Source of the DNA: an uncultured Chitinophagaceae bacterium
GTDB lineage: Bacteria > Bacteroidota > Bacteroidia > Chitinophagales > LD1
Reading direction: 5' to 3'
Length of the DNA stretch: 64,000 nucleotides
NCBI GenBank assembly: GCA_964398475.1
Contig: CAYNMP010000012.1
Span: 22,540 to 86,539, forward strand
The position numbers were made by a program, and so were the translations under genes. The first letter of the stretch is position 1. Each line of letters begins with the position of its first letter. Below are positions 11,138 to 27,456 of the stretch, piece after piece. The notes below the pieces were generated by a model that searched no databases, was not told the origin of the DNA, and saw only the letters and a list, made by a program, of their open reading frames with translations.

Positions 11138-11144
11138 GTTGAAA

Positions 11145-13156: not shown

Positions 13157-13162
13157 GGCGCA

Positions 13163-13495
13163 ATGGCGGGAAACAAAATTCAATTGAAAACAGGAAATGA
13201 ACTCATCTTTATAGCGCAAGATGAAATAGTAGCCGTTATGGCGGAGAACATTTATTGTGTATTTCTGCTGAAAGACAATAAAAAGGTAAAAACAGCACTA
13301 TCGTTAAGTGCTGCCATGCAGTTACTCGATGCAAAATATTTTTACAAAATACATCGATCGTATATCATCAACATCAACGCCATTGAAAGAATTGATTTAG
13401 CAACAGCTACAGTTCAACTTCAATATAGTACTGCAACTTTCCCCATTGCCCGTCAGCAGAAAAAGGCATTTCTAGCCTACCTCAAAACCAATTGA
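13163..13495 (+). CDS. standalone LytTR DNA-binding domain protein (no receiver domain)
   Basis: YKIHRSYIININAIERID is a LytTR signature and the protein is only about 110 aa. ATG at 13163 is preferred. The ORF track begins at TTG 13154. Confidence 0.65.
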   Translation: MAGNKIQLKTGNELIFIAQDEIVAVMAENIYCVFLLKDNKKVKTALSLSAAMQLLDAKYFYKIHRSYIININAIERIDLATATVQLQYSTATFPIARQQKKAFLAYLKTN

Positions 13496-13507
13496 ATCAA
13501 TAATCGG

Positions 13508-13577
13508 TCATTCACAAGTTGAAGTTCACCATTCACAAGTTAGAGGAATAAAGCGCGTACATAGTGCAACATATTTG
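13508..13577 (+). promoter_or_regulatory. candidate LytTR operator + promoter (site B): GTCATTCACAAGTT 13508-13520, CCATTCACAAGTT 13529-13541, CATATTTG box 13570-13577
   Basis: Same architecture as site A: 21-bp repeat register, 29 bp to the box, and the box 20 bp from ATG 13597. Confidence 0.5.
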
Positions 13578-13596
13578 CTGCACAAAAATAAACAAC

Positions 13597-14883
13597 ATGA
13601 AAAAAATTTACACTGCTTTAGTTGCATTAGGTTTAGCCATTGGCGCAGATGCTCAGATTCCAACGAATGGATTAATTCACCATTTTAATTTTGATGGCAA
13701 CTTAAGTAATGAAGTAAGTGGCGCAACGCCATTAGTGAGCGATTCGCTTGACTATTGCTTCGACACAAGAGTAAATAACTTACCACCGGCTTATACGAAA
13801 GATCGAAAAGGTAGAGACAATAAAGCGTATCTCTTGCTTTCCATAGAAAAATCGATTTTGGCCACCTGTGGAGGCTCTCCAAAGCAAACAACTACTTTTA
13901 TCAGTAACTCACTAAAAACAAGAGATTCCATTGCGCTGGGAAGCGGAGATAGAGCCATTGCGTTTTGGGCTAAAATGCCGAAAGTTGCAAGTTCGCAGAT
14001 TTTCCGTTTTCACCGAATCAATACAGGACTTGCACCTAAAAGTGCATTTGGGTTAGACATCAAAAACGACAATCCAAGTAACATTACTGCCTATACTTGG
14101 GGAGGAGGTTCAAATGATTATGTATTCAATACACCATTAGATACAAACTGGCACTTCTTTTTAATTACTGTTGAAAATTCAATTCTGTATTTGAACATCG
14201 ATAAAACACTGATTGGCTCAACATCTGTATCGGGATTAAACACAAGTACCGGGCAGTTATTTCTAGGTCAATTCTTTAAACAAGACTCCATTTATATCGA
14301 CAATGTAATGATTTATAACCGTGCTTTAACCACAAATGAAGTAGAGGTGGTATATGCAGATTCGTCAATTGCTTGCGTAAATCCAGATGTAAGCGCTACT
14401 GCACAAAACACAAGTGTAAGCATATCGATTTCAAATGCAGCAAGACCAACTGTTGTAAGCATTAAAGATGGCGATGGAGGAATCCTTCAATCGGACACGA
14501 TTACTTCAGGAAGCGGAACAGGTAACGTTTCTTTCACAAATCTTGCACCCAATACGTTTTACTATTACACGGTAACGAATGCGGATGGATGTTCTTCAAC
14601 TTCATCTTTCACGACAACAAACAATCCAACCGGAGTGAATACACTTTCTTCGAATACACGAGTAACGTTATATCCAAACCCTGCAAATAATGTATTACAT
14701 ATATCGAGTGAAATTACGTTTGAGAAAATTCAAATCACAAACGTAATCGGCAGCATTATCAAAGAGGAGACACTATCAGGCACAAGCATTAACATTAATG
14801 AATTACAGGCAGGTGTTTTTTACTTTGCTAAATTAATCGACAGTAAAGGCGCTATCGCCACAAAGAAATTTATTAAGCAATAA
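13597..14883 (+). CDS. T9SS-secreted protein: LamG/ConA-like lectin domain + Ig-like domain + type-A C-terminal sorting domain
   Basis: Signal peptide MKKIYTALVALGLAIGADAQ. LamG-like stretch (LFLGQFFKQDSIYIDNVMIYNRALTTNEV). Sorting domain VTLYPNPANNVLHISSEI...KKFIKQ. The start is set at the internal ATG. Confidence 0.8.
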   Translation: MKKIYTALVALGLAIGADAQIPTNGLIHHFNFDGNLSNEVSGATPLVSDSLDYCFDTRVNNLPPAYTKDRKGRDNKAYLLLSIEKSILATCGGSPKQTTTFISNSLKTRDSIALGSGDRAIAFWAKMPKVASSQIFRFHRINTGLAPKSAFGLDIKNDNPSNITAYTWGGGSNDYVFNTPLDTNWHFFLITVENSILYLNIDKTLIGSTSVSGLNTSTGQLFLGQFFKQDSIYIDNVMIYNRALTTNEVEVVYADSSIACVNPDVSATAQNTSVSISISNAARPTVVSIKDGDGGILQSDTITSGSGTGNVSFTNLAPNTFYYYTVTNADGCSSTSSFTTTNNPTGVNTLSSNTRVTLYPNPANNVLHISSEITFEKIQITNVIGSIIKEETLSGTSININELQAGVFYFAKLIDSKGAIATKKFIKQ

Positions 14884-14906
14884 TTTTCATGGGTCTGTTT
14901 TGTGTG

Positions 14907-14940
14907 ATCCCGGTGTTGTAATGACATCGGGATTTTTTTT
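14907..14940 (+). terminator. rho-independent terminator (conserved family hairpin)
   Basis: ATCCCGGTG-loop-CATCGGGAT followed by T8. Confidence 0.6.
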
Positions 14941-14953
14941 GCAGAATAAACTA

Positions 14954-15023
14954 CCATTCACAAGTTCAACATTACCATTCACAAGATGCCATAGTAAAGC
15001 CGAGTCGTTCCAATTCATATTTG
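14954..15023 (+). promoter_or_regulatory. candidate LytTR operator + promoter (site C): CCATTCACAAGTT 14954-14966, CCATTCACAAGAT 14975-14987, conserved ATAGTAAAGCCG, CATATTTG box 15016-15023
   Basis: 21-bp repeat register. The box is 29 bp downstream and lies 22 bp before ATG 15045. Confidence 0.55.
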
Positions 15024-15044
15024 CATCAACAAAATATTTACAAC

Positions 15045-16781
15045 ATGAAAAAAATTTACTCAGCCTTAGTAGCATTAGGTTTAGCGTTAGGCGCAAATGC
15101 ACAAACACCGATTTACACGCTTGATTCCACTTTTAATGCCGATGGCATTGCAGGATTTGGTATTGCAGGAAATGCTGAAGCTTCCGGGAACGCTATTCTG
15201 CGGTTATCATTTCAAACACCGTTTGGAATATGGGTGGCAGGGCGAATTAAAACCGCAGGAAATGCCAGTACAAGTTTCTACATAGCTAGATTATTAGATA
15301 ACGGAAATCTTGATACCGGTTTTGGTAGTAATGGAAATTATGGTTATACCGTAAACGCAAACATTAACAGCAACGTTATTGACTTACATAATATTTATGG
15401 AAGTGTGTACGCATCACACAGTGGGTATGGTGGTTTACATGCACCAAGTGCCACGTCTGCAGTAGTGAATAATCAAACCTATAACTTATCCGATAATTAT
15501 ATCATTGCTTCCGACAAATTAAATGACAGTTTAATCGTTCAACTATCTTCCAATAATGAATTACTTTGTTACAAGGTAAATAGTGGTAGTACGTATGCGG
15601 GATACGCTTGGTTTGATGGAGGAAACTACTACGGAAACATGCCAACAACTGTGGATGGGTTATCGCCTGTTGTAAACCAAAAAATGGCCGTTCAAAGTGA
15701 TGGAAAAATATTGGTAGCAGGACTTGCAGGCTCAGGCGGCAGTCATTTATTTATACAACGGTTCAAAAAAAACAGCTTTAGTGTTTTGGATAGCACCTTT
15801 GGTGTAAATGGAGTAGTGAAATACATAACAGGAAATCAAGTTCCGATTAGAGATGTAAGCTGTATGCAAGTTTACCCGAATGGAGATAATAGAATAGTAC
15901 TTGGTTATGGAAATTTTATCTATCGTTTTTCAGCTAATGGCACTAAAGATAATACGTTTAACACCCAACTGACTGACAATGATGAAGTATTTACCCGAAT
16001 AGCATTTTCGCCTTATAATGATGTTGTTGCTATAGCAAAAACAAGTACAGCATCTGCTTTGTATGGATTCAAAAATGATGGTAGTCCGCTAAATTCATTT
16101 CACAAAGGCAAAAACACATACTTAAAAACAGATGCTGATGTCAATTTGAATACAATGGATTTATTGGATGTGAAAATAGATGCCGGAGCAAATATTTATG
16201 TTTCAGGTAGCATGAAAGAAACAAGTACAAGTGATCCAAAAGTTTTGATCATGAAGTTGAAAGCAAGCTTATGTACAGCACCAAGTGTAGCAATTGATGA
16301 AAAAGCTGGTGCAGCTGATTTTGTGATCTTTAATGCAGTAAGACCCACTGTAGTTGTAATTAGAGATGGCGATGGTATTAATGTTGTGAATGACACCATC
16401 AAAACAGGTACAGGTAATGCAAGTGTTTCCTATTCCAACTTAGGACTTAATACAACGTATAGCTATATTGTCGCTAATCCTGATGGTTGTAGTTCAACTG
16501 GAGTATTTACAACGTTAGCATCAAACCCAACAAGTATAAACGATTTGAATAATGATAAACATGTTGTTCTATATCCTAATCCTTCAAAGAGCACATTAAA
16601 TATTTCAAGTGAAATTACATTTGATGCAATAGAAATTTCAAATGTGTTGGGTGCAGTAGTAAAAGCTGAAGTGCTTAACAATAACAGTATCAATATTACT
16701 GAATTACAGCCAGGCGTTTACTTCGCAAAATTAATCAACAGTAAAGGCGCTATCGCTACAAAGAAATTCATCAAAGAATAA
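15045..16781 (+). CDS. T9SS-secreted protein with delta-60-type beta-propeller repeats, Ig-like domain and type-A C-terminal sorting domain
   Basis: Signal peptide MKKIYSALVALGLALGANAQ is nearly identical to that of the 13597 gene. ARLLDNGNLDTGFGSNGNY is a delta-60 repeat signature. Sorting domain VVLYPNPSKSTLNISSEI...KKFIKE. Confidence 0.8.
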   Translation: MKKIYSALVALGLALGANAQTPIYTLDSTFNADGIAGFGIAGNAEASGNAILRLSFQTPFGIWVAGRIKTAGNASTSFYIARLLDNGNLDTGFGSNGNYGYTVNANINSNVIDLHNIYGSVYASHSGYGGLHAPSATSAVVNNQTYNLSDNYIIASDKLNDSLIVQLSSNNELLCYKVNSGSTYAGYAWFDGGNYYGNMPTTVDGLSPVVNQKMAVQSDGKILVAGLAGSGGSHLFIQRFKKNSFSVLDSTFGVNGVVKYITGNQVPIRDVSCMQVYPNGDNRIVLGYGNFIYRFSANGTKDNTFNTQLTDNDEVFTRIAFSPYNDVVAIAKTSTASALYGFKNDGSPLNSFHKGKNTYLKTDADVNLNTMDLLDVKIDAGANIYVSGSMKETSTSDPKVLIMKLKASLCTAPSVAIDEKAGAADFVIFNAVRPTVVVIRDGDGINVVNDTIKTGTGNASVSYSNLGLNTTYSYIVANPDGCSSTGVFTTLASNPTSINDLNNDKHVVLYPNPSKSTLNISSEITFDAIEISNVLGAVVKAEVLNNNSINITELQPGVYFAKLINSKGAIATKKFIKE

Positions 16782-16804
16782 TTTTCATCAGTAGGTTTTG
16801 TGTA

Positions 16805-16838
16805 ATCCCGGAGTTTTAATGACATCGGGATTTTTTTT
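16805..16838 (+). terminator. rho-independent terminator (conserved family hairpin)
   Basis: ATCCCGG...TCGGGAT followed by T8. Confidence 0.55.
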
Positions 16839-16850
16839 GCAAAAAAACTA

Positions 16851-16920
16851 CCATTCACAAGTTCAATATTACCATTCACAAGATGTTATAGTAAAGCCGG
16901 CAGGTTCGGATGCACTTTTG
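16851..16920 (+). promoter_or_regulatory. candidate LytTR operator + promoter (site D): CCATTCACAAGTT 16851-16863, CCATTCACAAGAT 16872-16884, ATAGTAAAGCCG, CACTTTTG box 16913-16920
   Basis: Identical architecture to sites C and E. The leader to ATG 16949 is longer than at the other sites (28 nt from the box). Confidence 0.55.
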
Positions 16921-16948
16921 CATCATTATAAAACACAAAATTATATTT

Positions 16949-19900
16949 ATGAAAAAATCAAACAACTCAAAAAACAAAAGAGCCTGGCAGTTGCTCTTAA
17001 ATCTACTGCTTTTGATTATAACCAATGGTAGCTTTCAATTGGCAAAAGCACAATGTAATCCGACACCCAATGCTGCTTTCATAGCACTATCCAATTACAA
17101 TCCTTGCATAGGCAGTACTATCACAGTACAGGTAAGTGGGATGTATCTACCAAATGCAAACTGGCAAGCAGTTCTTCAATATCCTAACTCATCCATAAAC
17201 ATAACCGGAAATGGGAACTATACTATTCCAATTACTACTGGAGGAAATGTTGTAGTCAGCATTATGAATAACGTAAATGGTTGTCCAACTGTTTATAATT
17301 CTAATGTGCTGACATTTTCAGTTTTGCCGGGAAATAAACCTACAGCACAGTCTGACACAGTTATTCGATTCTGTACAGGGGATAACAAATTTTTATTTGT
17401 AACAGCACCCAACGCAGCTTCTACTTTCCAATGGAAAAAAAATGGAACTGTAGTAGGTACGAATAACGACACATTATTTTTAAACACTATGGCTGCGACT
17501 GATACCGGATCTTACAAATGCTATATAAGCTCATCCACTTGTGGTTCAGATTCTTCAAAAACAATCAAACTAAAATTTGGAAGTATAGAATCTCAATCCG
17601 GAAATCTATCGCTATGCTCAGGCTCACAAGGTTTACTATGGGTGAAAGCTCCATCGGCCAATAATTTTGTTTGGAAATTAAATGGAGTTGCCATTCCAAA
17701 TTCAAATAACGATACCCTTACAATAAATAATTATACAACCGCTCAAGCAGGAACATATACCTGTGAAGCTTCGTTGAATGGCGGTTGTTTGAATACCGCT
17801 AGCTTTACGATCACCACCAATACTAATGTTACACTATTTGATTTTTCGACTGTAATAGCATCCTATCCAATGAGTGGAAATGCCAATAATGCAGTTTCTA
17901 CTTCAAACAACGGTACTGTTAATGCAGGCTGCACATTAACGGCTGATAGAAATGGAAATATTAATCGTGCTTATGACTTCAATGGTACAGCAAATGGCAC
18001 TATCAATATGGGAGACATCACGGCAATGAACGGTGCAAATGTACTTTCCATTAGTGGTTGGTTCAAAAGAACCAATATCAACCGCAATAATGAATTTTAC
18101 AGTAAAGTAATTGATTCCAGCGGGATATATTGCAGAGACTATTTGCAAAGTAATTATACTTACAACACCTTTGGAAACAATACACCAGCCATTAGCCCTA
18201 TAAACACGAATTGGTTTCATTACACTATGACCTTTAGTGGTGGCGCAATGAAAGTATTTGTTAATGGTACTCTAGCTGCTCAATTTTCAAATTTTGCAAA
18301 ACCATCTATTCAGTCGGCCACAGGCTCATCATTTATTTTGGGCGATATTTTGCGTGGTGGTACTACCGCTTATCCTTCTGATAATTTCATAGGACAAATG
18401 GACGAGATTAATATTTTTTCTAAGGAATTGAACCCAGTAGAAATTGCAGCGCTAATGAATGCCCCTCAATTTACGCAGCATCCACAAAATGCTTCACTTT
18501 GTGCGGGAAACAATTTGACACTTTCTGTTCTTGCTGAATCGCCTACTGCATCATTTCAATGGCAGAAAAACGGGGTAGATATTGCAGGTGCAAATCAAGC
18601 TACATTTACAAAAGCCAATATTCAAGCGGCTGATGCAGGTTCTTACACTTGTATAGTATCTGTGGGTTGTAATCGTTCTATCTCAAAGGCAGCTGTGGTT
18701 ACGGTTAGTTCGAATAGCATAACCATAACTTCCCAACCACAAGCACAATCTAAATGTGTTGGTCAATCGGCCTCTTTTACAGTAGCAGCAACAGGAGGCA
18801 CCGGTTATCAATGGAAAAAGAATGGGGCTAACATCAACGGACAAACTGCTGCTACATTAAACTTGAGCAGTGTAGCCGTATCCGATACAGGAACCTATGT
18901 ATGCGAAATCAGCGGTGGTAGTTGTGGTTCGTTAAGTAGCCAATCTGCATACCTAAGTGTATCTGCAATTCCTACTCCAACAATTTCGGGAGCAAGCGCT
19001 GTTTGTTCTGGAAGTGCTATCACGCTTACAGCAAACGGTGGAAACACATACGCATGGAGTAATAGTGGAGGAAATGCAGCATCTGCTACCTTCTCGCCAA
19101 CAACAGCTACTACCTATACCGTAACGGCTAGTTTAGGTGCAGGATGTACGGCTACTGCTACTAAAACCATAACCATCAAACAACCTACTGCAGGAAGTTA
19201 TAGTCAAACGATTTGCTTCGGACAGTCGGTAGTTTTTAACGGCATCTCTCGTGCTCAAAGTGGCGCTTACTTAGATACACTTGTAAACCTTGCCGGTTGC
19301 GATTCGTTCTTAACGTTGAACTTAACGGTTCGTCCGCAGATTACAAAAAGCATTGCGCAAACGGTTTGTTTTGGGGGAAGTACAACTTTCAACGGAGCTA
19401 CATTAACGCAAAGTGGAGTGTTCAAAGATACCTTGACGTCTGTAACCGGATGTGACAGTATCTTAACCTTGACCTTTACTGTTCGTCCGCGTATTGTTAC
19501 ATCTATTACGCAACCCATTTGCAATGGTTCGGCTATTACCTTCAACGGACAAACCATTACTACTGCAGGTACTTACTTAGATACACTAACCAGTGTAAAC
19601 GGTTGTGATAGTTTCATTACCTTAAATGTAACCATTGCACAAGCTACAGCAGCTACAATTAGCCAGAGTGCTTGTGGAAGTTATAGTTTTGGTGGAAACA
19701 CATTAACAGCAAGTGGAACGTACTTAGATACCATTTCAAATACTACAGGTTGTGATTCAGTAATTACATTGAACTTAATCATCAATCAAGCAACGGCATC
19801 AACTAAGAATGATACAATATGTTTTGGAACAACATACGCTTTCGGTTCTCAAACATTGAGTGCAACGGGTACTTACACTAGAACCATTCCAAATGCAGTA

Positions 19901-20395
19901 GGTTGCGATTCGGTGATTACGTTGAATTTGTTTGTTCGTCCGGCAATTAACATAAGCATCACGCAGAGTGGGCTAGATTTAACTGCTACTGCTGGCTTTA
20001 CAGATTATTTTTGGAAGTTGAATGGAGCAAATATTACAGCTGCAAATTTGAATACGTATACTACAATAAGCAATGGAGCATATTCTGTTCAAGTGGTAGA
20101 TGTCAATAACTGTTCAGCAATCTCAAATACAGTGAATGTAAATAGTGTAGGGATCGATGATGTATCAAGTTTGGACTTAACAATCTATCCGAATCCTGTC
20201 AATAATGTGTTACATATTTCGAGTGAAATTGCGTTTGATAAAATTCAAATCACCAACCCAATTGGCGACATCATCAAAGAAGGATTGCTATCAAGCACAA
20301 GTATTAATATTACTGAATTACAAGCAGGTGTTTACTTTGCTAAACTAATTGATAGTAAAGGTACAATCGTCACAAAGAAATTTATCAAGCAATAA
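16949..20395 (+). CDS. large T9SS-secreted adhesin-like protein (about 1149 aa): Ig-like domains, LamG/ConA-like domain, six 57-aa two-cysteine repeats, type-A C-terminal sorting domain
   Basis: Signal peptide MKKSNNSKNKRAWQLLLNLLLLIITNGSFQLAKA. YQWKKNG..GTYTC Ig-like units. A LamG-like region (DEINIFSKELNPVEIAALMN). Sorting domain LTIYPNPVNNVLHISSEI...KKFIKQ. Confidence 0.8.
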   Translation: MKKSNNSKNKRAWQLLLNLLLLIITNGSFQLAKAQCNPTPNAAFIALSNYNPCIGSTITVQVSGMYLPNANWQAVLQYPNSSINITGNGNYTIPITTGGNVVVSIMNNVNGCPTVYNSNVLTFSVLPGNKPTAQSDTVIRFCTGDNKFLFVTAPNAASTFQWKKNGTVVGTNNDTLFLNTMAATDTGSYKCYISSSTCGSDSSKTIKLKFGSIESQSGNLSLCSGSQGLLWVKAPSANNFVWKLNGVAIPNSNNDTLTINNYTTAQAGTYTCEASLNGGCLNTASFTITTNTNVTLFDFSTVIASYPMSGNANNAVSTSNNGTVNAGCTLTADRNGNINRAYDFNGTANGTINMGDITAMNGANVLSISGWFKRTNINRNNEFYSKVIDSSGIYCRDYLQSNYTYNTFGNNTPAISPINTNWFHYTMTFSGGAMKVFVNGTLAAQFSNFAKPSIQSATGSSFILGDILRGGTTAYPSDNFIGQMDEINIFSKELNPVEIAALMNAPQFTQHPQNASLCAGNNLTLSVLAESPTASFQWQKNGVDIAGANQATFTKANIQAADAGSYTCIVSVGCNRSISKAAVVTVSSNSITITSQPQAQSKCVGQSASFTVAATGGTGYQWKKNGANINGQTAATLNLSSVAVSDTGTYVCEISGGSCGSLSSQSAYLSVSAIPTPTISGASAVCSGSAITLTANGGNTYAWSNSGGNAASATFSPTTATTYTVTASLGAGCTATATKTITIKQPTAGSYSQTICFGQSVVFNGISRAQSGAYLDTLVNLAGCDSFLTLNLTVRPQITKSIAQTVCFGGSTTFNGATLTQSGVFKDTLTSVTGCDSILTLTFTVRPRIVTSITQPICNGSAITFNGQTITTAGTYLDTLTSVNGCDSFITLNVTIAQATAATISQSACGSYSFGGNTLTASGTYLDTISNTTGCDSVITLNLIINQATASTKNDTICFGTTYAFGSQTLSATGTYTRTIPNAVGCDSVITLNLFVRPAINISITQSGLDLTATAGFTDYFWKLNGANITAANLNTYTTISNGAYSVQVVDVNNCSAISNTVNVNSVGIDDVSSLDLTIYPNPVNNVLHISSEIAFDKIQITNPIGDIIKEGLLSSTSINITELQAGVYFAKLIDSKGTIVTKKFIKQ
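19181..19950 (+). repeat. array of six 57-aa repeats (C-F-G...G.Y.DTL....GCDS...LNLTV) inside the 16949-20395 gene
   Basis: Period of about 171 bp read from the translation. Each unit has two conserved Cys. I could not assign the unit to any family I know. Confidence 0.6.
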
Positions 20396-20418
20396 TTTTC
20401 ATGAGTCGGTTTTGTGTG

Positions 20419-20456
20419 ATCCCGGTGTTGTAACGACATCGGGATTTTCTTTTCGA
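20419..20456 (+). terminator. rho-independent terminator (conserved family hairpin)
   Basis: GATCCCGGTG...CATCGGGAT followed by TTTTCTTTTC. Confidence 0.5.
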
Positions 20457-20469
20457 CAAACAGACAATA

Positions 20470-20539
20470 CCATTCACAAGTTCAATACTACCACTCACAA
20501 GATGCAATAGTAAAGCCGACCGGTTCGGTTGCACTTTTG
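20470..20539 (+). promoter_or_regulatory. candidate LytTR operator + promoter (site E): CCATTCACAAGTT 20470-20482, CCACTCACAAGAT 20491-20503, ATAGTAAAGCCG, CACTTTTG box 20532-20539
   Basis: Same 21-bp repeat register and 29 bp to the box as the other sites. ATG 20558 lies 19 bp after the box. Confidence 0.55.
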
Positions 20540-20557
20540 CAGCATAAAACAACAATC

Positions 20558-23500
20558 ATGAATAAAATCAAAACAAAGACAAGACATCGCAACCGAGCGC
20601 TAACGGGTTGTATGATGGCGCTGCTATGGCTTTTAGTCCCGAGCAGCATTTTTGCACAACAGTTAGCACCTCAGCACGCCTGGAGTTTTGGCTTAGTTAA
20701 GTCAAACGTAAAAAACGTAAAGACAGACTCACTTGGCAACATTTATATAGCAGGATATTCAGATGTTACTGCAGATTTTGACCCTGGTACAGCTTCAAGT
20801 CCATTGGCAAGTGCAGGTGGGTATATAGCTAAATATACTTCTTCAAAACAACTCATTTGGGTTACTCCAATTGTAGCTACTGCAGTGAATGATTTTGATG
20901 TTTCTTCAAGCGGCTCTGTGGCTGTAGTTGGAAGCAATGGAGGAGCAATTATAAATATTTATAACCCTGCTGGCGGACTGCAATACAGTTATGGACTAGC
21001 CAATTCAGGTAACAATGGAGGAAGCTCAAGTTACGATGTTACTAATTGTATCTTTGATAAAAATGGCAATCTCATTGTTCGTGGAAGGGCGGGGACGAGT
21101 CCTGCACCAGGATTTTCGGGACCGGGTATAGGAGCTGATATTGACCCTGCACCGGGTTTTCAATCCGCTACAACATTAATCAATGCTACAACAGATTGGC
21201 TTATGCGCCTTTCGCCAACGTTTACTTTATTGAGTTATAAATTTATTGGCAGTGGGATTATTGGCTCTAACGATTTTGCAATATCCGGAGACACATTGTA
21301 TTGGGCAACTAGTCATGCAAATACCGCAACGGCTGTAGATTACAATCAAGGAGCATCGCCTGCATTATTAGTACAAGAAGAAAATGCCTTAATTGCTTAT
21401 AGAACTACCAATTTTACACCCATTTGGGGAGGTCCATTTAAAACAGGTGCTCAAAAAATGTTGATTGAGTCAACGCCAACAGGGGAAATTGCTTTACTCT
21501 TTCAAACAAATTACGGTAGAAATGCAACTTATACTTACCCTATAGATGGAAGTTACTATAATACCCTTTCTCCGGCAGGATCTTCACCTCATGGGTATTA
21601 CAATAATTATCTTTTGCATTACAATAAACAAACAGGAGCCTTAAACATTACCAATAAAGCACCTAGATTATTGGTGGACTCAGCCAATTCTTTAGCCAAC
21701 TTATATGTATCAGGATTTAGTGTTGATAAACGAGGAAATTACTTCATATCGGGTAGTGTGGGTGGATATGTAGATTTCCAAAATGGAACAGGACTATATT
21801 CAAGATCAAGTTCGGGTTCTATCGATCCTTACTTTGTAAAATACAAACCTAACCTATCGGTTGATTATGCAGCAATTTTTCCGAATAGCATCAACAGTAA
21901 CGATAATTTCAATGGAATAGCTGCTATAGATACATCAAGTATTGTTGTAGCAGGAAGCTATAGAAATACGCATAATGTAGATAGTCTTAAACTAGCACCT
22001 AATTTACCTTTTAATGTTGCAACAGAAGACAATGTTGTATTGGCAAAATATATGGGCGATCCTTGTAGGATACTGATTACCTCTACAAGCTTAGATACGT
22101 TTTCAGGCTGTAAATACACATTCTCAATCACTGCTAGTTCTCCAACTTCTCCTTTATCTTACCAATGGTTCAAAAACGGAGCATTGTTAACCGGACAAAC
22201 AACAAACACTACGAGTACTACTGGTGTGGGCACCTATCAGTGCCGTGTTTCAAATGCATGTGGTGAGCAGTGGTCTAAAAAATATGTTTTATTAGCATTA
22301 CCTGCAATTACATACAGTAGCACCTATTATTTAGATTCAAATTTGACCGGAACGCCAAATGGAGTAGGCACTGCAATTACTTATGGCGCAGACAGAGCCG
22401 GAAACGCCAATAAAGCTGCTGTTTTTAATGGCACGAGTTCCGTTATAGATATTACAAATCCAACGTTTAATAATGGTATCTCACTTTGGTTTAAAAGAGC
22501 TGATATTACAACGCGCAAATCAATGAGTCTTGTTAGCTACCAAGTAGCCGCACCAGGTGCTTGGAATCCAGTTATGTACTTGGATTCATCAGGCAGACTA
22601 AGTGGATTTGTATATGATGGCACAGCAAATCCACCTATCTATTCATCAGGATTTGTCAATGACACCTTATGGCACCACGCTGCTTGGACGTATGATGCTG
22701 TAGTAGGTCAGCAAAAACTATTCTTAGACGGTGCATTAGTAGGCACAAGAGCATCAAATGCTTTAGCTACAGGAGCTGCCAACATTATAAAAATTGGCAA
22801 TGGCTATATTCAAAGTTATCCCAATCTAACCGGAGCGGGCAATGCGCATTTCTTTAAAGGTTCTATTGATAATGTTTTCCTATCCTCTACAATTAGTAAT
22901 GCTAGAGCGGAAGCAATGAGCAAGAGTCCAGCCTTTTTCAAAATAGATCTTGGGTTGCTTTATACTCCAAAAACTAAAGACGTTTGTAGTGTAACCAATT
23001 TTACATTAAATGCAGGCATCCTAACAAACCCCAATACCGGTAATCAAGTATCCTATACTTGGGTATATGTAGATCAAACTACATCACCTTTCACGTTTAC
23101 AACATTAACAAATAGTGCAACAATATCTGGCGCAACTACACCAAATTTAGTAGTTACCAATGCCAATCCTGCAACATTTAGTTTGGGTTATTTTCGCTTA
23201 ACCATTTCAGATGCGTATTGCTATGTAGATGAAGCAGATATCCGTTTAAATTTAACTACAGGTGTGGGAACTATTACACAACCCGCAAACACTTCTGCAT
23301 GCTTAGGATCAAATGCAATTTTTGTTGCAAAAGCCACAGTAGCTACAGGTTATCAATGGAAGAAAAATGGCGTAAATATCCCAAGCTCAAACAACGACAC
23401 CTTGTTCTTGAACAACATTGTTGCAGGAGATTATACAACATACACTTGTGACATTACAGGTTGTGGAGGTACTGTTGTTACAAGCAATACGGTAACACTT

Positions 23501-26500
23501 TCACAACCAACTGTTGCCATACTAACACAGACTTCAGCATCAAGCAATCCGGCTTGTGTTGGATCGAATACTGTTTTATTTGTAAATGCACAAAATGCAG
23601 TGAGCTATCAATGGAAAAAGGGAGGTGTAAATATATCGAACACGAATAACGATACACTATTCTTAACCAATGTTCAGGCTTCCGATGCCGGTAGTTATAC
23701 TTGTGAAATCACCAGTTGTAGTGGAGGAACAGTTACCTCAAATGCTTTAGCCGTAACGACTACACTTAACTCAACAAGCACAAACTTGATTCACCATTGG
23801 AAGCTTAATTCTAATTTAACGCCTTCTGTTGGAACAATTAATCTTACCCCTGTAAGTACGCTATACAATTACAATGTAGATAGAAACGGAGTTGCGTCAA
23901 ATGGTCTTCAGTTTGCTACTTCAACAACAACCAATGCCTTGGTGTTAAGTACACCCATTACGCAGGATAATATTTCCATTTCATTGTGGTATAATAAAGG
24001 AAACTCAACTACTGTTGAAACACTGATTGGCGACAATGGCACTAACTATGGTGATATGCTTGGCATCAATGCATCGGGCAAATTAGGTTATCAAGTAGGA
24101 GGTTCAGGATTCCAATCATCTGGAGTTACAGTTACAAACGGATGGCATCATTTTGTAGTAACCAAATCGGGTAGTACTATGAAAATGTACATGGATGGCA
24201 CCCAAATCATTTTTGGTGGTGGTTTAGCTACACCTCCAACGATGGGTGTAGGTACATTGATTGGACGAATTGGTAATACTGCACCAATTTATAACACCAA
24301 TATGGCTAAAGGAATCTTTGATGATATTCGAATTTACAGTGCTGTATTGTCTACTTCTGAAGTGAACAACCTATATCAAGCACCGGAAATATTAGGTATT
24401 GGCGTATTTGCTGCGGTATGTGCCGGAGGAACAACATCTACTTCTGTATTGACGAGTGGAAACGCAAACACTACTTATCAATGGCAAAAAGCAGGGGTGA
24501 ATATTCCGGGAGCAAATTCATCTACACTTACGCTTACGAATGTTCAAGCAGGAGATGCAGGAAACTACGCCTGTGTGGTTGGCTCATCGGCAGGATGTGT
24601 AGCCACAACATCCGGAAATGCAACATTAACGTTAGCAACCGGTGGTGTAACGTTTACAACCCAGCCCCAACCACAATCGAAATGTGTTGGTCAGCCTGTA
24701 ACATTCACAGTTGCTGCAACAGGTGGTACAGGTTATCAGTGGAAGAAAAATGGTTCAGCACTTTCCGGTCAAACAAGTGCTACATTAAACATTAGCGCTG
24801 TTGCATTAACCGATACCGGAACTTATACTTGCGATATTACAGGCGGAACTTGCGGGTCAACACCATCGAATGCCGCATACTTAACTGTAAATGCAGTTCC
24901 TTCTGCTTCTATTTCACCAAGTACAGTTAGTATTTGTGCAGGAGTTTCGCAAACGTTGACAGCAAGTGGAAATGGAACATATACATGGAGTAATAGCGGT
25001 GGAAGTACTGCTGCTGCAACCTTTACACCATCAAGTACAACAACATACACAGTTACAGTTTCAGCAGGAATTTGTTCTGCTACTGCATCATCAACCGTTA
25101 CTGTAAACGCTATTCCAACAGCAAGTATCACCCCAACAACCGTTACCATTTGTGCCGGAGATGCTGCTAATTTAACGGCATCAGGTGGAGGAACTTATGC
25201 ATGGAGTAATAGTGGAGGAACTGCTGCTGCGGCTAGTTTCAGTCCAACAACAACTTCAACTTACACAGTTACCGTTACAGCGAACAACTGTTCTGCAACG
25301 ACTTCACGTTTAGTAACGGTGAATGCCTTGCCAACAGCTTCTATAACACCATCTACTGCTGTTGTAGTTTGTGCAGGCTCTCCGGCTACACTTATTGCTG
25401 CCGGTGGAACAAGCTACGCTTGGAGCAATAGTGGAGGCACTGCTGCTGCTGCAACCTTCAGTCCAACAACAACATCAACGTATACTGTAACCGTTACAGC
25501 GAATAACTGTTCGGCTACAGCTTCTAAGCTCGTTACTGTAAATGCCTTACCGTTAGCCACCCTTACCCCTGCTGCTCCTGCTATCTGTGCCGGTGCAAGT
25601 CAAACCCTTACTGCAGGTGGTGGATCGAGCTATGCTTGGAGTGCAGGTCTAGGTTCTGGAACTACTAAATCAGTTAGTCCTACATCTACAACAACTTATA
25701 CCATCACTGCTACAGATGCCAACAACTGTTCGGCTTCTGCCTCAGCAACAGTTTCGGTTACTACTGTGGTAGCTGCTATCAACGGACCAACAACGATCTG
25801 TTCAGGTCTTTCAGCTACACTTACCGCTTCCGGTGGTGGAACTTATGCTTGGAGTAATTCTTTGGGTAGTGCTGCTGCTGTTACCGTTTCGCCAACAACA
25901 GCTACTACTTATACTGTAACTGTTACAAACAATAGCTGTACTGCTACAGCTTCTCAAACCGTGTCGGTACAATCGGCTCCAACGGCTGTGATCAACGGAG
26001 CAAGTTCTGTATGTGCAGGAAGTTCTATTACCCTTACAGCTAATGGTGGAAACACTTACGCATGGAGTAATAGTGGAGGAAATGCAGCATCTGCTACCTT
26101 CTCACCTACTACAACTACTACGTATACCGTAACGGCTAGTTTAGGTGCAGGATGTACTGCTACAGCTACTAAAACCATAACCATCAAACAACCTACTGCA
26201 GGAAGTTACAATCAAACGATTTGTTTTGGTCAGTCGGTGCTGTTTAACGGTATCTCTCGTTCACAAAGTGGCGCTTACTTAGATACCCTTGTAAACCTTG
26301 CCGGTTGCGATTCGTTCTTAACGTTGAACTTAACGGTTCGTCCGCAAATTAGCGGAAGCATTGCGCAAACGGTTTGTTTTGGTGGAAGTACAACTTTCAA
26401 CGGAGCTACATTAACGCAAAGTGGTGTGTTCAAAGATACCTTGACGTCTGTAACCGGATGTGACAGTATATTAACCTTGACCTTTACTGTTCGTCCGCGT

Positions 26501-27400
26501 ATTGCTACTTCTATTACGCAACCCATCTGCAATGGTTCTGCTATTACGTTCAACGGACAAACCATTACTACTGCGGGTACTTACTTAGATACATTAACAA
26601 GTGTAAGTGGTTGCGATAGTTTCATCACCTTGAATGTTACCATTGCACAAGCTACAGCAGCAACTATTAGTAAGAGTGCTTGTGAAAGTTTCAGTTTTGG
26701 TGGAAACACATTAACGGTTAGTGGAACATACTTAGATACCATTTCAAATGTTGCCGGTTGTGATTCAGTAATTACCTTGAACTTAACCATCAACCAAGCA
26801 ACGGCATCATCGATGTTTGATACGATCTGTAATGGCGATAGTTACAGTTTTGGTGCGCAAACACTCAGTCAAAGTGGTGTATACAACAGAACGATTACCA
26901 ATGCAGCCGGTTGTGATTCAGTAATTACATTGAACTTGTTTGTTCGTCCGGCTGTAGCAGTAACCGCTTCTGCATCAGGTTTCAACTTAAGTGCTACTGC
27001 AGGTTTTGTTGCTTATCAATGGAAACTGAATGGTAGTACAATCAGTGGAGCGAATACACAAACGTACACCGCAGTTGCCAACGGAGCATACACTGTAGAA
27101 GTTACGGATGCGAATGGTTGCAAAGGCACTTCAAATGTAGTGAACGTAAATGGTGTAGGAATCGAAGACTTGCGTAATCTTAACTTGACTATCTATCCGA
27201 ATCCGGCTACAGATATTATCACCATTGAAACCGATGAGCAAGTAACAAGAGTTGAACTCTTCAGCGCTATTGGACAAAAAATCAATGTAACCGTCAATAC
27301 TAAACAGCAAATCAACATCAGCGATTTAGCAGCTGGTGCATACAGCTTAATCATTCATACAACAAATGGTTCGATAAAAAAACGTTTCGTGAAAGAATAA
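20558..27400 (+). CDS. giant T9SS-secreted adhesin-like protein (about 2280 aa): SBBP-type beta-propeller repeats, two LamG/ConA-like domains, Ig-like domains, six tandem 73-aa Ig-like repeats, six 57-aa two-cysteine repeats, type-A C-terminal sorting domain
   Basis: Signal peptide MNKIKTKTRHRNRALTGCMMALLWLLVPSSIFAQQ. GNIYIAGYSD..DFDPG repeats. Sorting domain LTIYPNPATDIITIETDEQ...KKRFVKE. The start is set at ATG 20558. The ORF track uses TTG 20537. Confidence 0.8.
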   Translation: MNKIKTKTRHRNRALTGCMMALLWLLVPSSIFAQQLAPQHAWSFGLVKSNVKNVKTDSLGNIYIAGYSDVTADFDPGTASSPLASAGGYIAKYTSSKQLIWVTPIVATAVNDFDVSSSGSVAVVGSNGGAIINIYNPAGGLQYSYGLANSGNNGGSSSYDVTNCIFDKNGNLIVRGRAGTSPAPGFSGPGIGADIDPAPGFQSATTLINATTDWLMRLSPTFTLLSYKFIGSGIIGSNDFAISGDTLYWATSHANTATAVDYNQGASPALLVQEENALIAYRTTNFTPIWGGPFKTGAQKMLIESTPTGEIALLFQTNYGRNATYTYPIDGSYYNTLSPAGSSPHGYYNNYLLHYNKQTGALNITNKAPRLLVDSANSLANLYVSGFSVDKRGNYFISGSVGGYVDFQNGTGLYSRSSSGSIDPYFVKYKPNLSVDYAAIFPNSINSNDNFNGIAAIDTSSIVVAGSYRNTHNVDSLKLAPNLPFNVATEDNVVLAKYMGDPCRILITSTSLDTFSGCKYTFSITASSPTSPLSYQWFKNGALLTGQTTNTTSTTGVGTYQCRVSNACGEQWSKKYVLLALPAITYSSTYYLDSNLTGTPNGVGTAITYGADRAGNANKAAVFNGTSSVIDITNPTFNNGISLWFKRADITTRKSMSLVSYQVAAPGAWNPVMYLDSSGRLSGFVYDGTANPPIYSSGFVNDTLWHHAAWTYDAVVGQQKLFLDGALVGTRASNALATGAANIIKIGNGYIQSYPNLTGAGNAHFFKGSIDNVFLSSTISNARAEAMSKSPAFFKIDLGLLYTPKTKDVCSVTNFTLNAGILTNPNTGNQVSYTWVYVDQTTSPFTFTTLTNSATISGATTPNLVVTNANPATFSLGYFRLTISDAYCYVDEADIRLNLTTGVGTITQPANTSACLGSNAIFVAKATVATGYQWKKNGVNIPSSNNDTLFLNNIVAGDYTTYTCDITGCGGTVVTSNTVTLSQPTVAILTQTSASSNPACVGSNTVLFVNAQNAVSYQWKKGGVNISNTNNDTLFLTNVQASDAGSYTCEITSCSGGTVTSNALAVTTTLNSTSTNLIHHWKLNSNLTPSVGTINLTPVSTLYNYNVDRNGVASNGLQFATSTTTNALVLSTPITQDNISISLWYNKGNSTTVETLIGDNGTNYGDMLGINASGKLGYQVGGSGFQSSGVTVTNGWHHFVVTKSGSTMKMYMDGTQIIFGGGLATPPTMGVGTLIGRIGNTAPIYNTNMAKGIFDDIRIYSAVLSTSEVNNLYQAPEILGIGVFAAVCAGGTTSTSVLTSGNANTTYQWQKAGVNIPGANSSTLTLTNVQAGDAGNYACVVGSSAGCVATTSGNATLTLATGGVTFTTQPQPQSKCVGQPVTFTVAATGGTGYQWKKNGSALSGQTSATLNISAVALTDTGTYTCDITGGTCGSTPSNAAYLTVNAVPSASISPSTVSICAGVSQTLTASGNGTYTWSNSGGSTAAATFTPSSTTTYTVTVSAGICSATASSTVTVNAIPTASITPTTVTICAGDAANLTASGGGTYAWSNSGGTAAAASFSPTTTSTYTVTVTANNCSATTSRLVTVNALPTASITPSTAVVVCAGSPATLIAAGGTSYAWSNSGGTAAAATFSPTTTSTYTVTVTANNCSATASKLVTVNALPLATLTPAAPAICAGASQTLTAGGGSSYAWSAGLGSGTTKSVSPTSTTTYTITATDANNCSASASATVSVTTVVAAINGPTTICSGLSATLTASGGGTYAWSNSLGSAAAVTVSPTTATTYTVTVTNNSCTATASQTVSVQSAPTAVINGASSVCAGSSITLTANGGNTYAWSNSGGNAASATFSPTTTTTYTVTASLGAGCTATATKTITIKQPTAGSYNQTICFGQSVLFNGISRSQSGAYLDTLVNLAGCDSFLTLNLTVRPQISGSIAQTVCFGGSTTFNGATLTQSGVFKDTLTSVTGCDSILTLTFTVRPRIATSITQPICNGSAITFNGQTITTAGTYLDTLTSVSGCDSFITLNVTIAQATAATISKSACESFSFGGNTLTVSGTYLDTISNVAGCDSVITLNLTINQATASSMFDTICNGDSYSFGAQTLSQSGVYNRTITNAAGCDSVITLNLFVRPAVAVTASASGFNLSATAGFVAYQWKLNGSTISGANTQTYTAVANGAYTVEVTDANGCKGTSNVVNVNGVGIEDLRNLNLTIYPNPATDIITIETDEQVTRVELFSAIGQKINVTVNTKQQINISDLAAGAYSLIIHTTNGSIKKRFVKE
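24895..26190 (+). repeat. six tandem repeats of about 219 bp (73 aa) in the giant gene, consensus ..P.ASI.P....CAG....LTASGG.TYAWSNSGG.AAA.FSPTTT.TYTVTVT.N.CSAT.S..V.VN
   Basis: Adjacent copies are near-identical at the nucleotide level, for example 25130-25350 versus 25355-25575. The 16949 paralog has only one such unit. Confidence 0.65.
26188..26950 (+). repeat. array of six 57-aa two-cysteine repeats in the giant gene, part of the block about 95% identical to 19181-19950
   Basis: The translated sequence is almost identical to the array in the 16949 gene. Nucleotide spot checks show 1-4 mismatches per 60 nt. Confidence 0.65.
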
Positions 27401-27422
27401 GATTTTCATTCCGTGTTTTGTT

Positions 27423-27456
27423 TTCCCGCTCTGTTATCAGGGCGGGATTTTTTTTA
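27423..27456 (+). terminator. rho-independent terminator after the giant gene
   Basis: TCCCGCTCTG-ttatc-AGGGCGGGA followed by T8. It is almost the same sequence as the terminator at 30627-30657. Confidence 0.6.

Follow-up and report, generated by a model that had tools for sequence, protein, structure and literature searches.

In the agr (AgrA, P2/P3), com (ComE) and pln (PlnC/PlnD) systems of Gram-positive bacteria, LytTR response regulators act on several operons through paired 9-bp direct repeats with a spacer of 12-13 bp. These systems combine membrane peptide-sensing kinases with quorum-sensing outputs, and in pln two regulators of opposite effect use common sites. The closest named system to the locus described here is the BlpH/BlpR/BlpS (+GSP) bacteriocin regulon of Streptococcus gallolyticus, where BlpR shares its binding motif with the 108-aa LytTR-only protein BlpS, its antagonist (PMC8545106). 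Known LytTR sites, for example ACCACTTAC-12-ACCACTTAC, are 9-bp repeats with a 12-bp spacer that end 4-11 bp 5' of the -35 element (PMC6193735).

We analysed a 64-kb stretch of DNA, referred to as the window. With a probability of about 0.72, the segment under study makes up the target portion of a LytTR-type two-component regulon, closest to BlpRH/BlpS, in a member of the Bacteroidota, probably of the Chitinophagales; its array of secreted cargo genes would have arisen by duplication and recombination. As in Blp, one locus holds histidine kinase genes, a REC-LytTR response regulator and a LytTR-only protein of ~108-110 aa, and several separate transcription units carry the same motif just 5' of their promoters. 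Both LytTR proteins of Blp bind one site, the small one as negative feedback, whereas binding here is predicted. The two systems also differ in phylum (Bacteroidota here, Firmicutes for Blp) and in sensing, with two paralogous cytoplasmic TPR kinases of the PF06580 type here in place of one 5-TM peptide receptor, and neither a pheromone gene nor an ABC exporter was identified. In place of bacteriocins, the targets here are large surface proteins of the T9SS, and the LytTR-only gene has a separate box promoter instead of being co-transcribed with the two-component genes. Like the agr, com and pln systems, the locus has paired 9-bp repeats before several units, but its kinases are soluble.

The response regulator (8491-9246, + strand, 251 aa) has REC and LytTR domains (Pfam Response_reg 6e-21, LytTR 1.5e-17), and its best NCBIfam matches are of the BtsR/LytR type. 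Its orthologs, at 56-86% identity, always adjoin a TPR-His_kinase gene and the same boxes. Two cytoplasmic TPR + His_kinase sensor kinases are encoded on the - strand: HK1 (9248-11137, 629 aa; His_kinase PF06580 1.8e-21, with TPR matches) and its paralog HK2 (11145-12971, 608 aa). Their C-terminal ~240 aa are ~92% identical, while the sensor parts share ~25-30%. No transmembrane segment was found in either kinase, the peak 19-aa hydropathy mean of HK1 being 1.57. The related loci L007, L021 and L024 each have one HK2-type kinase at the corresponding position. The LytTR-only regulator (13163-13495, + strand, 110 aa) is without a receiver domain (Pfam LytTR 1.9e-16) and matches the AgrA C-terminal domain 3BS1 (E 7e-4). 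It is 27% identical to the LytTR domain of the response regulator, and both domains have Y, R and R at the positions aligned with the AgrA base contacts. Just 10 protein clusters were found for it, each at least 58% identical to the query.

The putative operator is a direct-repeat pair, ACCATTCAC-N12-ACCATTCAC, with a 21-bp period. Matches to CCATTCACAAG with at most one mismatch occur 11 times in the window against 1.5 expected by chance, and 10 of the 11 fall in five pairs with the 21-nt period. A PWM scan of the window returned these five pairs alone, every one on the + strand; 10 shuffles gave no pair. A scan of genome and metagenome collections with the box pair gave no further related loci. 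Four pairs precede the cargo genes, at 13506-13539, 14952-14985, 16849-16882 and 20468-20501 (the last with second box CCACTCACAAG), and the fifth (13085-13118) precedes the LytTR-only gene. The kinase operon and this first pair share the divergent region 12972-13162; there is no box ahead of the response regulator gene. All five promoters, predicted from motifs, have the Bacteroidota -7 element CAnnTTTG, without a canonical -33 TTTG. These elements lie at 13149-13156 (CAACTTTG), 13570-13577 (CATATTTG), 15016-15023, 16913-16920 (CACTTTTG) and 20532-20539, which ends the + strand promoter units 13085-13156, 13506-13577, 14952-15023, 16849-16920 and 20468-20539. From the start of the second box to the G of the -7 TTTG is exactly 48 nt in 5/5 promoters, and the box centres lie ~47 and ~68 nt 5' of the inferred start site. 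Across 16 aligned promoter units from 6 genomes, nearly all columns without variation belong to the boxes and the TTTG. The ATG of the LytTR-only gene is 7 nt past its -7 element, a geometry repeated in L007 and L024, and its mRNA is probably leaderless.

The geometry of the pairs equals that of known LytTR sites, and we infer that they are the site of a LytTR-type regulator. Since five box-to-promoter geometries are identical, co-regulation of the five units is strongly implied. The first-pass annotation had rightly placed a common operator and promoter before the four cargo genes. It missed that the operator is a LytTR-type direct repeat, that a fifth copy lies before the LytTR gene, and that there is a link to a response regulator and two kinases. 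The fifth copy changes how the operator is interpreted.

The cargo array consists of four neighbouring + strand genes for T9SS type-A cargo, with ATGs at 13597, 15045, 16949 and 20558 as annotated (g1-g4). Every gene comes with a separate promoter and hairpin terminator, in the layout box, promoter, (signal peptide), passenger, C-terminal sorting domain (CTD), terminator, and all four match Por_Secre_tail (Pfam) and TIGR04183 above cut-off. The g1 product (13597-14883, 428 aa) has a signal peptide, LamG, an FN3-like module and a family-A CTD. In g2 (15045-16781, 578 aa), a g1-like signal peptide is followed by a DUF5122/delta-60 beta-propeller, an FN3-like module and a family-A CTD. The g3 product (16949-20395, 1148 aa) carries Ig-like and LamG domains, five Cys repeats of 49-51 aa and a family-A CTD. 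The longest, g4 (20558-27400, 2280 aa), has SBBP propeller repeats, Ig-like domains, two LamG, Ig_7 units, five Cys repeats and a distinct CTD of its own. The module types had been named correctly, except that the Cys repeats have this 49-51-aa period, in 5 copies, rather than 57 aa. The four products are presumed to be adhesins or surface binders, a guess from domain types alone (lectin-like, Ig-like, beta-propeller and Cys-repeat modules).

The sorting domains of g1, g2 and g3 are 56-78% identical at the protein level, compared to 16-35% for pairs with g4 or with the other T9SS cargo in the window (6942-8351 and 28955-30619). Because these values are well over those of the other pairs, the near-identity that had been claimed for the three tails goes beyond generic T9SS likeness. 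The signal peptides of g1 and g2 are near-identical, as described (MKKIYTALVALGLAIGADAQ, MKKIYSALVALGLALGANAQ). The passengers had also been called unrelated, which is an overstatement: g1 and g2 have their last 170 aa in common at 55%, 546 aa are common to g3 and g4 at 69% and another 645 aa at 40%, and LamG is present in g1, g3 and g4. By these alignments, most of g3 is paralogous to g4, and the gene is a mosaic that joins a g4-like body to a g1-like CTD. A 712-nt stretch of g3 (18989-19700, + strand) is 91.7% identical to 25997-26708 in g4 and has a sharp 5' boundary; 43 of its 59 differences are at third codon positions and no adenine-biased mismatches were found in it. This is, on the pattern of identity, a recombination or conversion tract.

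The same hairpin, ATCCCGGTG..CATCGGGAT followed by a T-run, stands 3' of g1, g2 and g3, so the claim of one terminator in three of the four genes was accurate. In g1 (14906-14940) it has a 13-bp stem and T8 (-22.1 kcal/mol, z -4.7). The g2 copy (16804-16838) has a mismatch-weakened stem (-13.3 kcal/mol, z -2.1) and that of g3 (20418-20454) an interrupted T-run (-24.0 kcal/mol, z -4.3). The g4 terminator (27424-27455) has a different stem of analogous design, 10 bp + T8 (-18.9 kcal/mol, z -5.3); all four are on the + strand. In L020, the ortholog of the g2-terminator segment is 97% identical to the g1-terminator segment. The intergenic units of the array are 79-88% identical, the 140 nt upstream of g2, g3 and g4 79-81%, and the 70 nt past the stop codons of g1, g2 and g3 81-87%. 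For random 140-nt pairs the mean is 52%, with no pair above 62%. This likeness exceeds the functional motifs and therefore points to duplication. Together with the repeated-unit build, it agrees with the cassette duplication and shuffling suggested at first pass.

Exchange among T9SS cargo has a precedent in Porphyromonas gingivalis, where rgpA, kgp and hagA exchange long near-identical adhesin/C-terminal segments by recombination or gene conversion. These three lie at scattered genomic positions and, to our knowledge, have no common box-promoter-terminator frame and form no tandem array under one LytTR box, unlike the array here. The presence, absence and rearrangement predicted for relatives were seen. 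L019 is without g2, and the crossover there is clean and falls within the shared terminator: a single switch at 14918-14941 (the g1 terminator) is consistent with 122 of 131 informative sites. The gene is also absent from L005 and L007 and present in L020, L025 and L024. L007 has a g1-like gene followed by g4, with g2 and g3 missing, and the g3 gene of L005 has a Cys-repeat region and a CTD of the g4 type. Swaps of CTDs between otherwise orthologous bodies are seen in related metagenomic loci. Cargo DNA that is 92-97% identical lies beside regulators that are just 29-56% identical. In the comparison of the window with L024, synonymous sites are saturated in the regulators, and dS is 0.03-0.15 in the g2 3' half, the intergenic unit and the g3 5' end. 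As these mosaic patterns were read from metagenome assemblies, they could include chimeric joins at repeats. Against that caveat, L024 carries an allele of its own in the cargo segment (96.6% identical to the window, 94.6% to L020), and identity within g2 changes gradually, with no step.

Another possible but unlikely explanation of the regulation is that the five promoters are all activated primarily by the LytTR-only protein (13163-13495), in a self-amplifying loop as in HdrR/BrsR, and that the response regulator and kinases control something else or act solely upstream of that protein. Its gene bears a box pair, the hallmark autoregulation of LytTR regulatory systems (PMC6193735), and heads the cargo array in the window, L004, L005, L007, L019, L020, L024 and L025. 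The HdrRM and BrsRM systems of Streptococcus mutans likewise have a LytTR-only regulator with paired direct repeats in its own promoter, 9-bp repeats with a 12-bp spacer ending ~8-10 bp 5' of the -35/-33 region (PMC6193735), and the box here begins with 9 nt, ACCATTCAC, that resemble their ACCACTTAC. However, the co-transcribed membrane inhibitor gene that defines those systems is missing downstream of the regulator: the next gene encodes secreted LamG cargo, and no hydrophobic segment was found in the checked regulator, kinase and TPR proteins around the array. A full two-component system adjoins here, and the targets differ. The boxes also persist where the LytTR-only protein has diverged or was not seen. 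It is down to 29-58% identity with the boxes unchanged (29-30% in L024). In L021/L022 and L023, with regulators 65-66% identical, the regulator-kinase pair alone was seen and the same boxes are kept before other genes; these are few metagenomic contigs, and the genomes they come from could carry a LytTR-only gene at another site. This persistence across a few contigs makes the response regulator the candidate primary binder.

The first-pass annotation had further suggested a possible system for diversifying co-regulated surface adhesins. Co-regulation is strongly implied; dedicated, programmed diversification, with cassettes shuffled at high frequency within a population by a shufflon, DGR or silent-cassette mechanism, is very improbable. 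Common flanks around differing bodies, close relatives that differ in gene content and CTD, and cargo DNA far more alike between lineages than the adjoining regulators would all fit it. In Mycoplasma vlp/vsa, tandem genes that are near-identical in their 5' regulatory and signal-peptide parts and diverge in their exposed parts do vary, via phase-variable promoters or site-specific inversion. Nothing like either is present here. Over the 64 kb of the window there is no recombinase, invertase, reverse transcriptase, transposase or DGR, and inverted repeats in the region are short and imperfect at most, with none meaningful or invertible. There are no silent promoterless copies, as every copy has a promoter, signal peptide, CTD and terminator, and the g3/g4 mismatches fall mostly at third codon positions without adenine bias. 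By dN/dS, below 0.35 throughout and 0.10-0.22 for cargo orthologs, the latter are under purifying selection. The g1-g2-g3-g4 order is also stable in independent four-gene assemblies (L020, L025 and the shorter window-identical contigs L001 and L002). The least probable reading, which we consider next to negligible, is that the genes are not specifically related and simply share generic T9SS-substrate, promoter and terminator features of Bacteroidota. The YPNP motif and beta-sandwich pattern are indeed common to all T9SS type-A CTDs, and the g4 CTD and signal peptide are merely generically similar to those of g1-g3. It is refuted by the CTD identities of g1-g3, the non-coding identities far over background, and the restriction of the box pairs to these five promoters in the window.

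In the regulon reading, HK1 and HK2, with near-identical kinase cores and different sensor domains, would phosphorylate the single REC-LytTR response regulator, which would bind the box pairs and switch on five independent transcription units, the LytTR-only protein and the four T9SS cargo genes. The box-controlled LytTR-only protein would most likely act back on these boxes, either competing as BlpS does or amplifying as HdrR does. The cargo genes would stem from tandem duplication of the whole box-to-terminator unit. The shared units would then be substrates for ordinary homologous recombination, leading to gene loss and gain and CTD swaps and moving cargo DNA between diverged lineages. By sequence comparison, the array is a case of recombination-driven modular evolution, not a programmed diversifier: in related genomes, whole genes and export tails appear to be gained, lost and swapped at the shared pieces via ordinary recombination.

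The four plus-strand ORFs of the array start at 13597, 15045, 16949 and 20558, in agreement with the first-pass annotation. The first gene (g1, 13597-14883) encodes 428 aa with a LamG domain, an FN3-like module and a C-terminal type IX secretion (T9SS) sorting domain (CTD). The second (g2, 15045-16781; 578 aa) carries a DUF5122/delta-60 beta-propeller, an FN3-like module and a CTD, and the third (g3, 16949-20395; 1148 aa) carries at least four Ig-like domains, LamG, Cys repeats and a CTD. The fourth (g4, 20558-27400) is the longest at 2280 aa, with SBBP repeats, Ig-like domains, two LamG domains, Ig_7 units, Cys repeats and a CTD. All four proteins matched Por_Secre_tail at 40-47 bits (Pfam cut-off 27) and TIGR04183 at 35-46 bits (NCBIfam cut-off 23), with the domain reaching the last residue, and are classed by their CTDs as predicted T9SS type-A cargo. 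Their N-termini, judged by eye, have a basic stretch, then a hydrophobic stretch and then an A-x-A/Q site. Seven CTD-bearing proteins, six of type A and one of CHU_C type B, were found in the 64-kb window and, therefore, the source genome very likely has a T9SS.

The passenger domains had been described as unrelated modules, which the alignments bear out only in part. The final 170 aa of g1 and g2 are 55% identical, and g3 and g4 align extensively, over 546 aa at 69% and another 645 aa at 40%. These two genes also have in common a 712-nt tract (18989-19700 and 25997-26708) of 91.7% nucleotide identity, with a sharp 5' edge and a decaying 3' edge. The Cys repeats, previously given as 57 aa, have a period of 49-51 aa and occur in five copies in both g3 and g4; this period was taken from motif spacing, and the copies are too diverged for detection by Tandem Repeats Finder. 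By these comparisons, g3 of the window reads as a mosaic, a g4-like body joined to a g1-like CTD.

The common frame around these passengers held up better. Over their last ~78 residues (the family-A CTD), g1, g2 and g3 share 56-78% identity, while all pairs with the g4 CTD or with the two flanking type-A cargo proteins are only 16-35% identical. The flanking genes (6942-8351 and 28955-30619, both plus strand) lie outside the regulon, show generic CTD similarity only and served as the internal baseline, so the family-A resemblance is not merely that of T9SS substrates in general. Identity is 79-81% for the 140 nt 5' of g2, g3 and g4, and 81-87% for the 70 nt 3' of the g1, g2 and g3 stop codons, compared with a mean of 52% and a maximum of 62% for random pairs of 140-nt windows. 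The shared frame exceeds both chance and generic similarity. The signal peptides of g1 and g2 are near-identical, as had been reported, differing at 3 of 20 positions. The common hairpin terminator was also found 3' of g1, g2 and g3, as GATCCCGGTGTTGTAATGACATCGGGATT followed by a T-run, with energies of -22.1 kcal/mol for g1, -24.0 kcal/mol for g3 and -13.3 kcal/mol for g2, in which the stem is weakened. The g2 terminator was missed in the computational scan because of its large loop. g4 ends in a different stem of like design (-18.9 kcal/mol). In public gene calls, the g2-g3 intergenic unit is crossed by a 70-aa ORF (window 16819-17031, equivalent to 5090-5302 of the related locus L001) that spans the terminator, boxes and promoter; this ORF is almost certainly spurious. 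A BLAST search of the plasmid collection with the cargo region gave no match, and a protein search with the 81-aa family-A CTD alone returned three short fragments only, one of which led to the related locus L025.

The motif CCATTCACAAG, allowing at most one mismatch, occurs 11 times in the 64 kb against 1.5 expected. Ten of the 11 matches pair up at a 21-nt period, giving five plus-strand pairs, and a position-weight scan for pairs recovered these five and no others in the window, and none in ten shuffles. One pair lies 5' of each of g1 to g4, confirming that they have the same operator. The fifth pair (13085-13118), absent from the first-pass annotation, lies 5' of a 110-aa ORF (13163-13495) encoding a bare LytTR DNA-binding domain (Pfam, 1.9e-16), hereafter the LytTR-only gene. 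In the window scan, no boxes were found 5' of the response regulator gene or the flanking T9SS genes. The pairs have the format ACCATTCAC-N12-ACCATTCAC. The sites bound by HdrR, BrsR and related proteins are 9-bp repeats separated by 12 bp, and their end lies 4-11 bp upstream of the -35 element, for example ACCACTTAC-12-ACCACTTAC (PMC6193735). Set against Tables 2 and 3 of PMC6193735, the box pairs have the exact format of characterised LytTR sites and are thus candidate sites of this class.

Measured to the G of a conserved CAnnTTTG, the putative -7 element, the second box starts exactly 48 nt and ends 37 nt before this G in every one of the five units, which places the box ~8-9 nt upstream of the putative -33 region. 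Bacteroidota promoters have a -7 element TAnnTTTG and a -33 element TTTG. At the putative -33 position, the units carry a conserved (A/G)TAAAG rather than TTTG, as would be expected for an activator-dependent promoter. A sigma-70 promoter scan gave 30 sites against 43 expected; this model is uninformative for Bacteroidota. The LytTR-only mRNA is probably leaderless or nearly so, since the ATG follows TTTG by 4-6 nt in three diverged genomes: 6 nt in the window (13149-13165) and in L007 (9990-10003), and 4 nt in L024 (12908-12920), the latter two being related metagenomic loci. L024 also has three consecutive boxes, CACCATTCAAAAAG, TACCACTCACAAG and TACCATTTACAAG, between its kinase gene and the LytTR-only promoter (12683-12800), followed by a short hairpin and a T-run. 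They may belong to a further small transcription unit or to a divergent promoter of the kinase gene. A box-pair scan of genome and metagenome contig collections gave only unrelated matches (21-22-nt tandem repeats and one Prevotella contig), and tblastn found no LytTR, response-regulator or cargo homolog on any of them.

The likely regulators adjoin the array. A REC-LytTR response regulator gene (8491-9246) lies upstream of the LytTR-only gene and the cargo, so that two LytTR proteins are encoded within 5 kb; the LytTR-only protein also matches the AgrA C-terminal domain 3BS1 (E 7e-4). Two paralogous kinase genes (9248-11137 and 11145-12971, both minus strand) each encode a PF06580 His_kinase core preceded by a TPR-like N-terminal region. 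A hydrophobic segment is lacking in both kinases (highest 19-aa hydropathy means 1.57 and 1.04) and, therefore, both are predicted to be cytoplasmic sensors. The last ~240 residues of the two kinases are ~92% identical, with 607 nt of kinase-core DNA (9327-9933 and 11224-11830) at 87-88%, while their TPR sensor parts are only ~25-30% identical. Near-identical cores with diverged sensor parts suggest two inputs converging on one response regulator. A single kinase occupies the equivalent position in L007, L021 and L024, and the tandem kinases look like a sensor-domain duplication feeding one response regulator. The grouping of kinase, REC-LytTR and LytTR-only genes in one locus is conserved in L004, L007, L019, L020 and L024; L025 has both kinases and the LytTR-only gene, and its contig ends before the regulator position. 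The nearest named homologs of the response regulator are in Chitinophagales metagenome-assembled genomes.

Comparison of the related loci favours the response regulator, rather than the LytTR-only protein, as the putative reader of the boxes. L021/L022 and L023, reached through regulator homologs of 65-66% identity, keep the adjacent TPR kinase and have boxes with the same pairing, period and distance to TTTG as the window. In these loci, other genes follow the boxes (for a 130-aa T9SS mini-protein, and a 150-aa ORF), and no LytTR-only gene was seen on the L021, L022 and L023 contigs. L024, with a regulator of 56% identity, retains both the boxes and the gene order (regulator, kinase, LytTR-only, cargo), and its LytTR-only protein is only 29-30% identical to that of the window. 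The LytTR domain of the response regulator is more conserved than the LytTR-only domain. The two domains have in common a Y (N-[IV]-Y motif), an R (HRSY) and an R (PI[AS]R), which align with AgrA H169, N201 and R233. These AgrA residues are the base-contacting ones, and since the two domains agree at these positions, it is plausible that both proteins recognise the same site, where the LytTR-only protein may compete with the regulator.

Among characterised systems, BlpH/BlpR/BlpS of Streptococcus gallolyticus appears closest in design. BlpS is a 108-aa LytTR-only protein that binds the same motif as the response regulator BlpR and acts in negative feedback (PMC8545106). Like that system, the locus here combines a histidine kinase, a REC-LytTR regulator and a LytTR-only protein. 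It differs in that its kinases are soluble TPR proteins without a transmembrane segment, whereas the Blp kinase is a membrane peptide sensor, and in that its predicted targets are T9SS surface proteins; neither a gene for a small peptide nor a dedicated exporter could be recognised nearby. An HdrRM-type system would account for a LytTR-only gene with autoregulatory-type repeats upstream (the boxes at 13085-13118). However, its co-transcribed transmembrane inhibitor gene is absent directly 3' of the LytTR-only gene, where g1, a secreted LamG cargo gene with its own box promoter, is found instead. The inhibitor gene is likewise absent from this position in all related loci, and no transmembrane segment was predicted in the neighbouring regulator, kinase and TPR proteins scanned. 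Since this defining gene is missing, HdrRM is the poorer fit, and we regard the region as a likely LytTR-box regulon closest in design to BlpRH/BlpS.

Related loci, obtained by exact-protein look-ups, differ in cargo content, in line with the presence and absence of modules that the first-pass annotation had proposed to look for. L020 (96% nucleotide identity to the window) and L025 (a frameshifted assembly with window-like gene order) carry g1-g2-g3-g4, and L019 (92%) lacks g2 and carries g1-g3-g4. L005 and L006 (~80-83%) have a g1-like gene and then one g3-like gene with a g4-type Cys-repeat region and CTD. L007 (one kinase, regulator 86% identical in protein) has a g1-like gene and then g4, and L024 has a g2-like and then a g3-like gene. 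For the g2 loss in L019, 122 of 131 informative sites fit a single switch between window positions 14918 and 14941, a 23-nt interval within the identical 3' half of the shared terminator. This breakpoint has the character of a footprint of homologous recombination between two unit copies. The CTDs also appear to have been exchanged between otherwise orthologous bodies: the L005 g1 CTD is only 30% identical to that of window g1, the L007 g4 has 92% nucleotide identity across 7 kb but only 34% identity in its terminal CTD, and the L005 g3 carries a g4-type CTD at 86%. Downstream of the array, the window has a convergent gene (27454-28863, minus strand) for a 469-aa cytoplasmic protein with a weak TPR match only and no NCBIfam match, and the downstream genes in L007 and L005 differ from it. 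Those 3' of the shortened L005 array (7747-12144) include an exosortase (EpsH) gene, a PID_CTERM protein and a very large fn3 protein, a different sorting system adjoining the T9SS array.

Divergence along the loci indicates that the exchange of cargo segments between lineages probably postdates the divergence of the surrounding genome. When the window is compared with L024, synonymous sites of the regulators are saturated and protein identity is 56% for the regulator, 35% for the kinase and 29% for the LytTR-only protein. Over the 3' half of g2, the intergenic unit and the opening 750 nt of g3, by contrast, dS is 0.03-0.15 and protein identity 98-99%, and identity climbs gradually along g2. 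The 5' part of window g3 is 96.6% identical to L024 and only 79% to the otherwise closer L019. For L007, dS is 0.28 in g4 compared with 0.99 in the regulator and 0.80 in the kinase, and the LytTR-only protein is only 57% identical. For L019, dS is 0.09-0.29 in the kinase, LytTR-only and cargo genes and 0.42-0.59 in flanking housekeeping genes, with the left flank at about twice the regulon (3163-13000 against 13163-25380), suggesting that the regulon region was exchanged more recently than the left flank. These mosaic identities rest on metagenome assemblies, in which chimeric joins are possible; against a chimera, the L024 segment is identical to no sampled window-like strain, and identity changes either gradually or at places away from repeats.

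For the intergenic units, strong concerted evolution within a genome was rejected, since orthologous units are 97-100% identical and paralogous ones 76-88%. The terminator segment of the second intergenic unit of L020 is an exception, at 97% to the first and 89% to the second unit of the window, and hints at occasional conversion only. The array had also been proposed as a system for diversifying surface adhesins. As a programmed mechanism, this is not borne out: no recombinase, transposase or reverse transcriptase is encoded in the 64-kb window, where the other genes are ordinary chromosomal ones (amylase, peptidases, ThiF, RF3, TsaD, guanylate kinase, superoxide dismutase and others), and the only inverted repeats in the region are short, imperfect and not significant. 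Invertible promoters were ruled out by the lack of flanking inverted repeats. A diversity-generating retroelement does not account for the g3/g4 repeat, as there is no reverse transcriptase and the tract differences, 43 of 59 of which are at third codon positions, show no adenine bias. There are no silent cassettes, every copy being a complete, expressible gene. Gene-wide positive selection was also rejected, as all orthologous dN/dS values are at most 0.31: 0.10-0.22 for cargo, 0.09-0.14 for kinases and 0.31 for the LytTR-only gene, with the flanks more constrained at 0.02-0.05. What remains of the original proposal is a duplicated, probably co-regulated and recombining cassette-like family.

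Further along the window are two Flavo-1 RNAs above the Rfam gathering score, at 38261-38343 (minus strand, 59.4 bits) and 41378-41462 (plus strand, 51.7 bits). The first is directly upstream of a gene (34465-38151, minus strand) for a protein of 1228 aa that combines a lectin domain, PKD and SprB repeats with a CHU_C (T9SS type B) tail. The type-A and CHU_C tails, the SprB repeats and the two Flavo-1 RNAs are the basis for assignment to Bacteroidota.

The mechanism is not new in kind, since it apparently combines a LytTR regulon with homologous recombination between paralogs arranged in tandem. Few signalling proteins of Bacteroidota are more numerous than LytTR response regulators and PF06580 kinases; to our knowledge, almost none of these has a known binding site or regulon. 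Judged by title and abstract, none of the papers found to mention both LytTR and type IX secretion describes a LytTR regulator that controls T9SS cargo. The locus offers a crisp candidate operator, in which ACCATTCAC-N12-ACCATTCAC keeps a fixed distance to the -7 element, together with a small predicted regulon of T9SS surface proteins and a natural three-regulator design (two soluble TPR kinases with a response regulator and a LytTR-only protein).

In L021 (12679-13186) and also in L022, boxes precede the gene for the 130-aa protein, in a genome whose response regulator is 65% identical. This protein has a signal peptide, a Cys-containing segment of ~35-40 aa and a T9SS CTD. To see in it a small LytTR-controlled exported peptide, perhaps a signal or a toxin, is pure speculation. 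A further speculation is that the circuit serves Bacteroidota in sensing a peptide or cell density, and this T9SS-exported mini-protein, with the same boxes before its gene, could be the signal. We also consider it unlikely, though worth stating, that the frame of box, promoter, signal peptide, CTD and terminator is a plug-and-play docking site for adhesin cassettes. Cassettes from quite distant Chitinophagales lineages would then recombine into the array through the shared frame, and would be wired at once into the local TPR-kinase/LytTR regulon and T9SS export. The array is a clean natural example of frame recombination, with a breakpoint mapped to a 23-nt terminator interval, and its shared regulatory and secretion frames would let surface-protein genes be deleted, fused, re-tailed and swapped across lineages.
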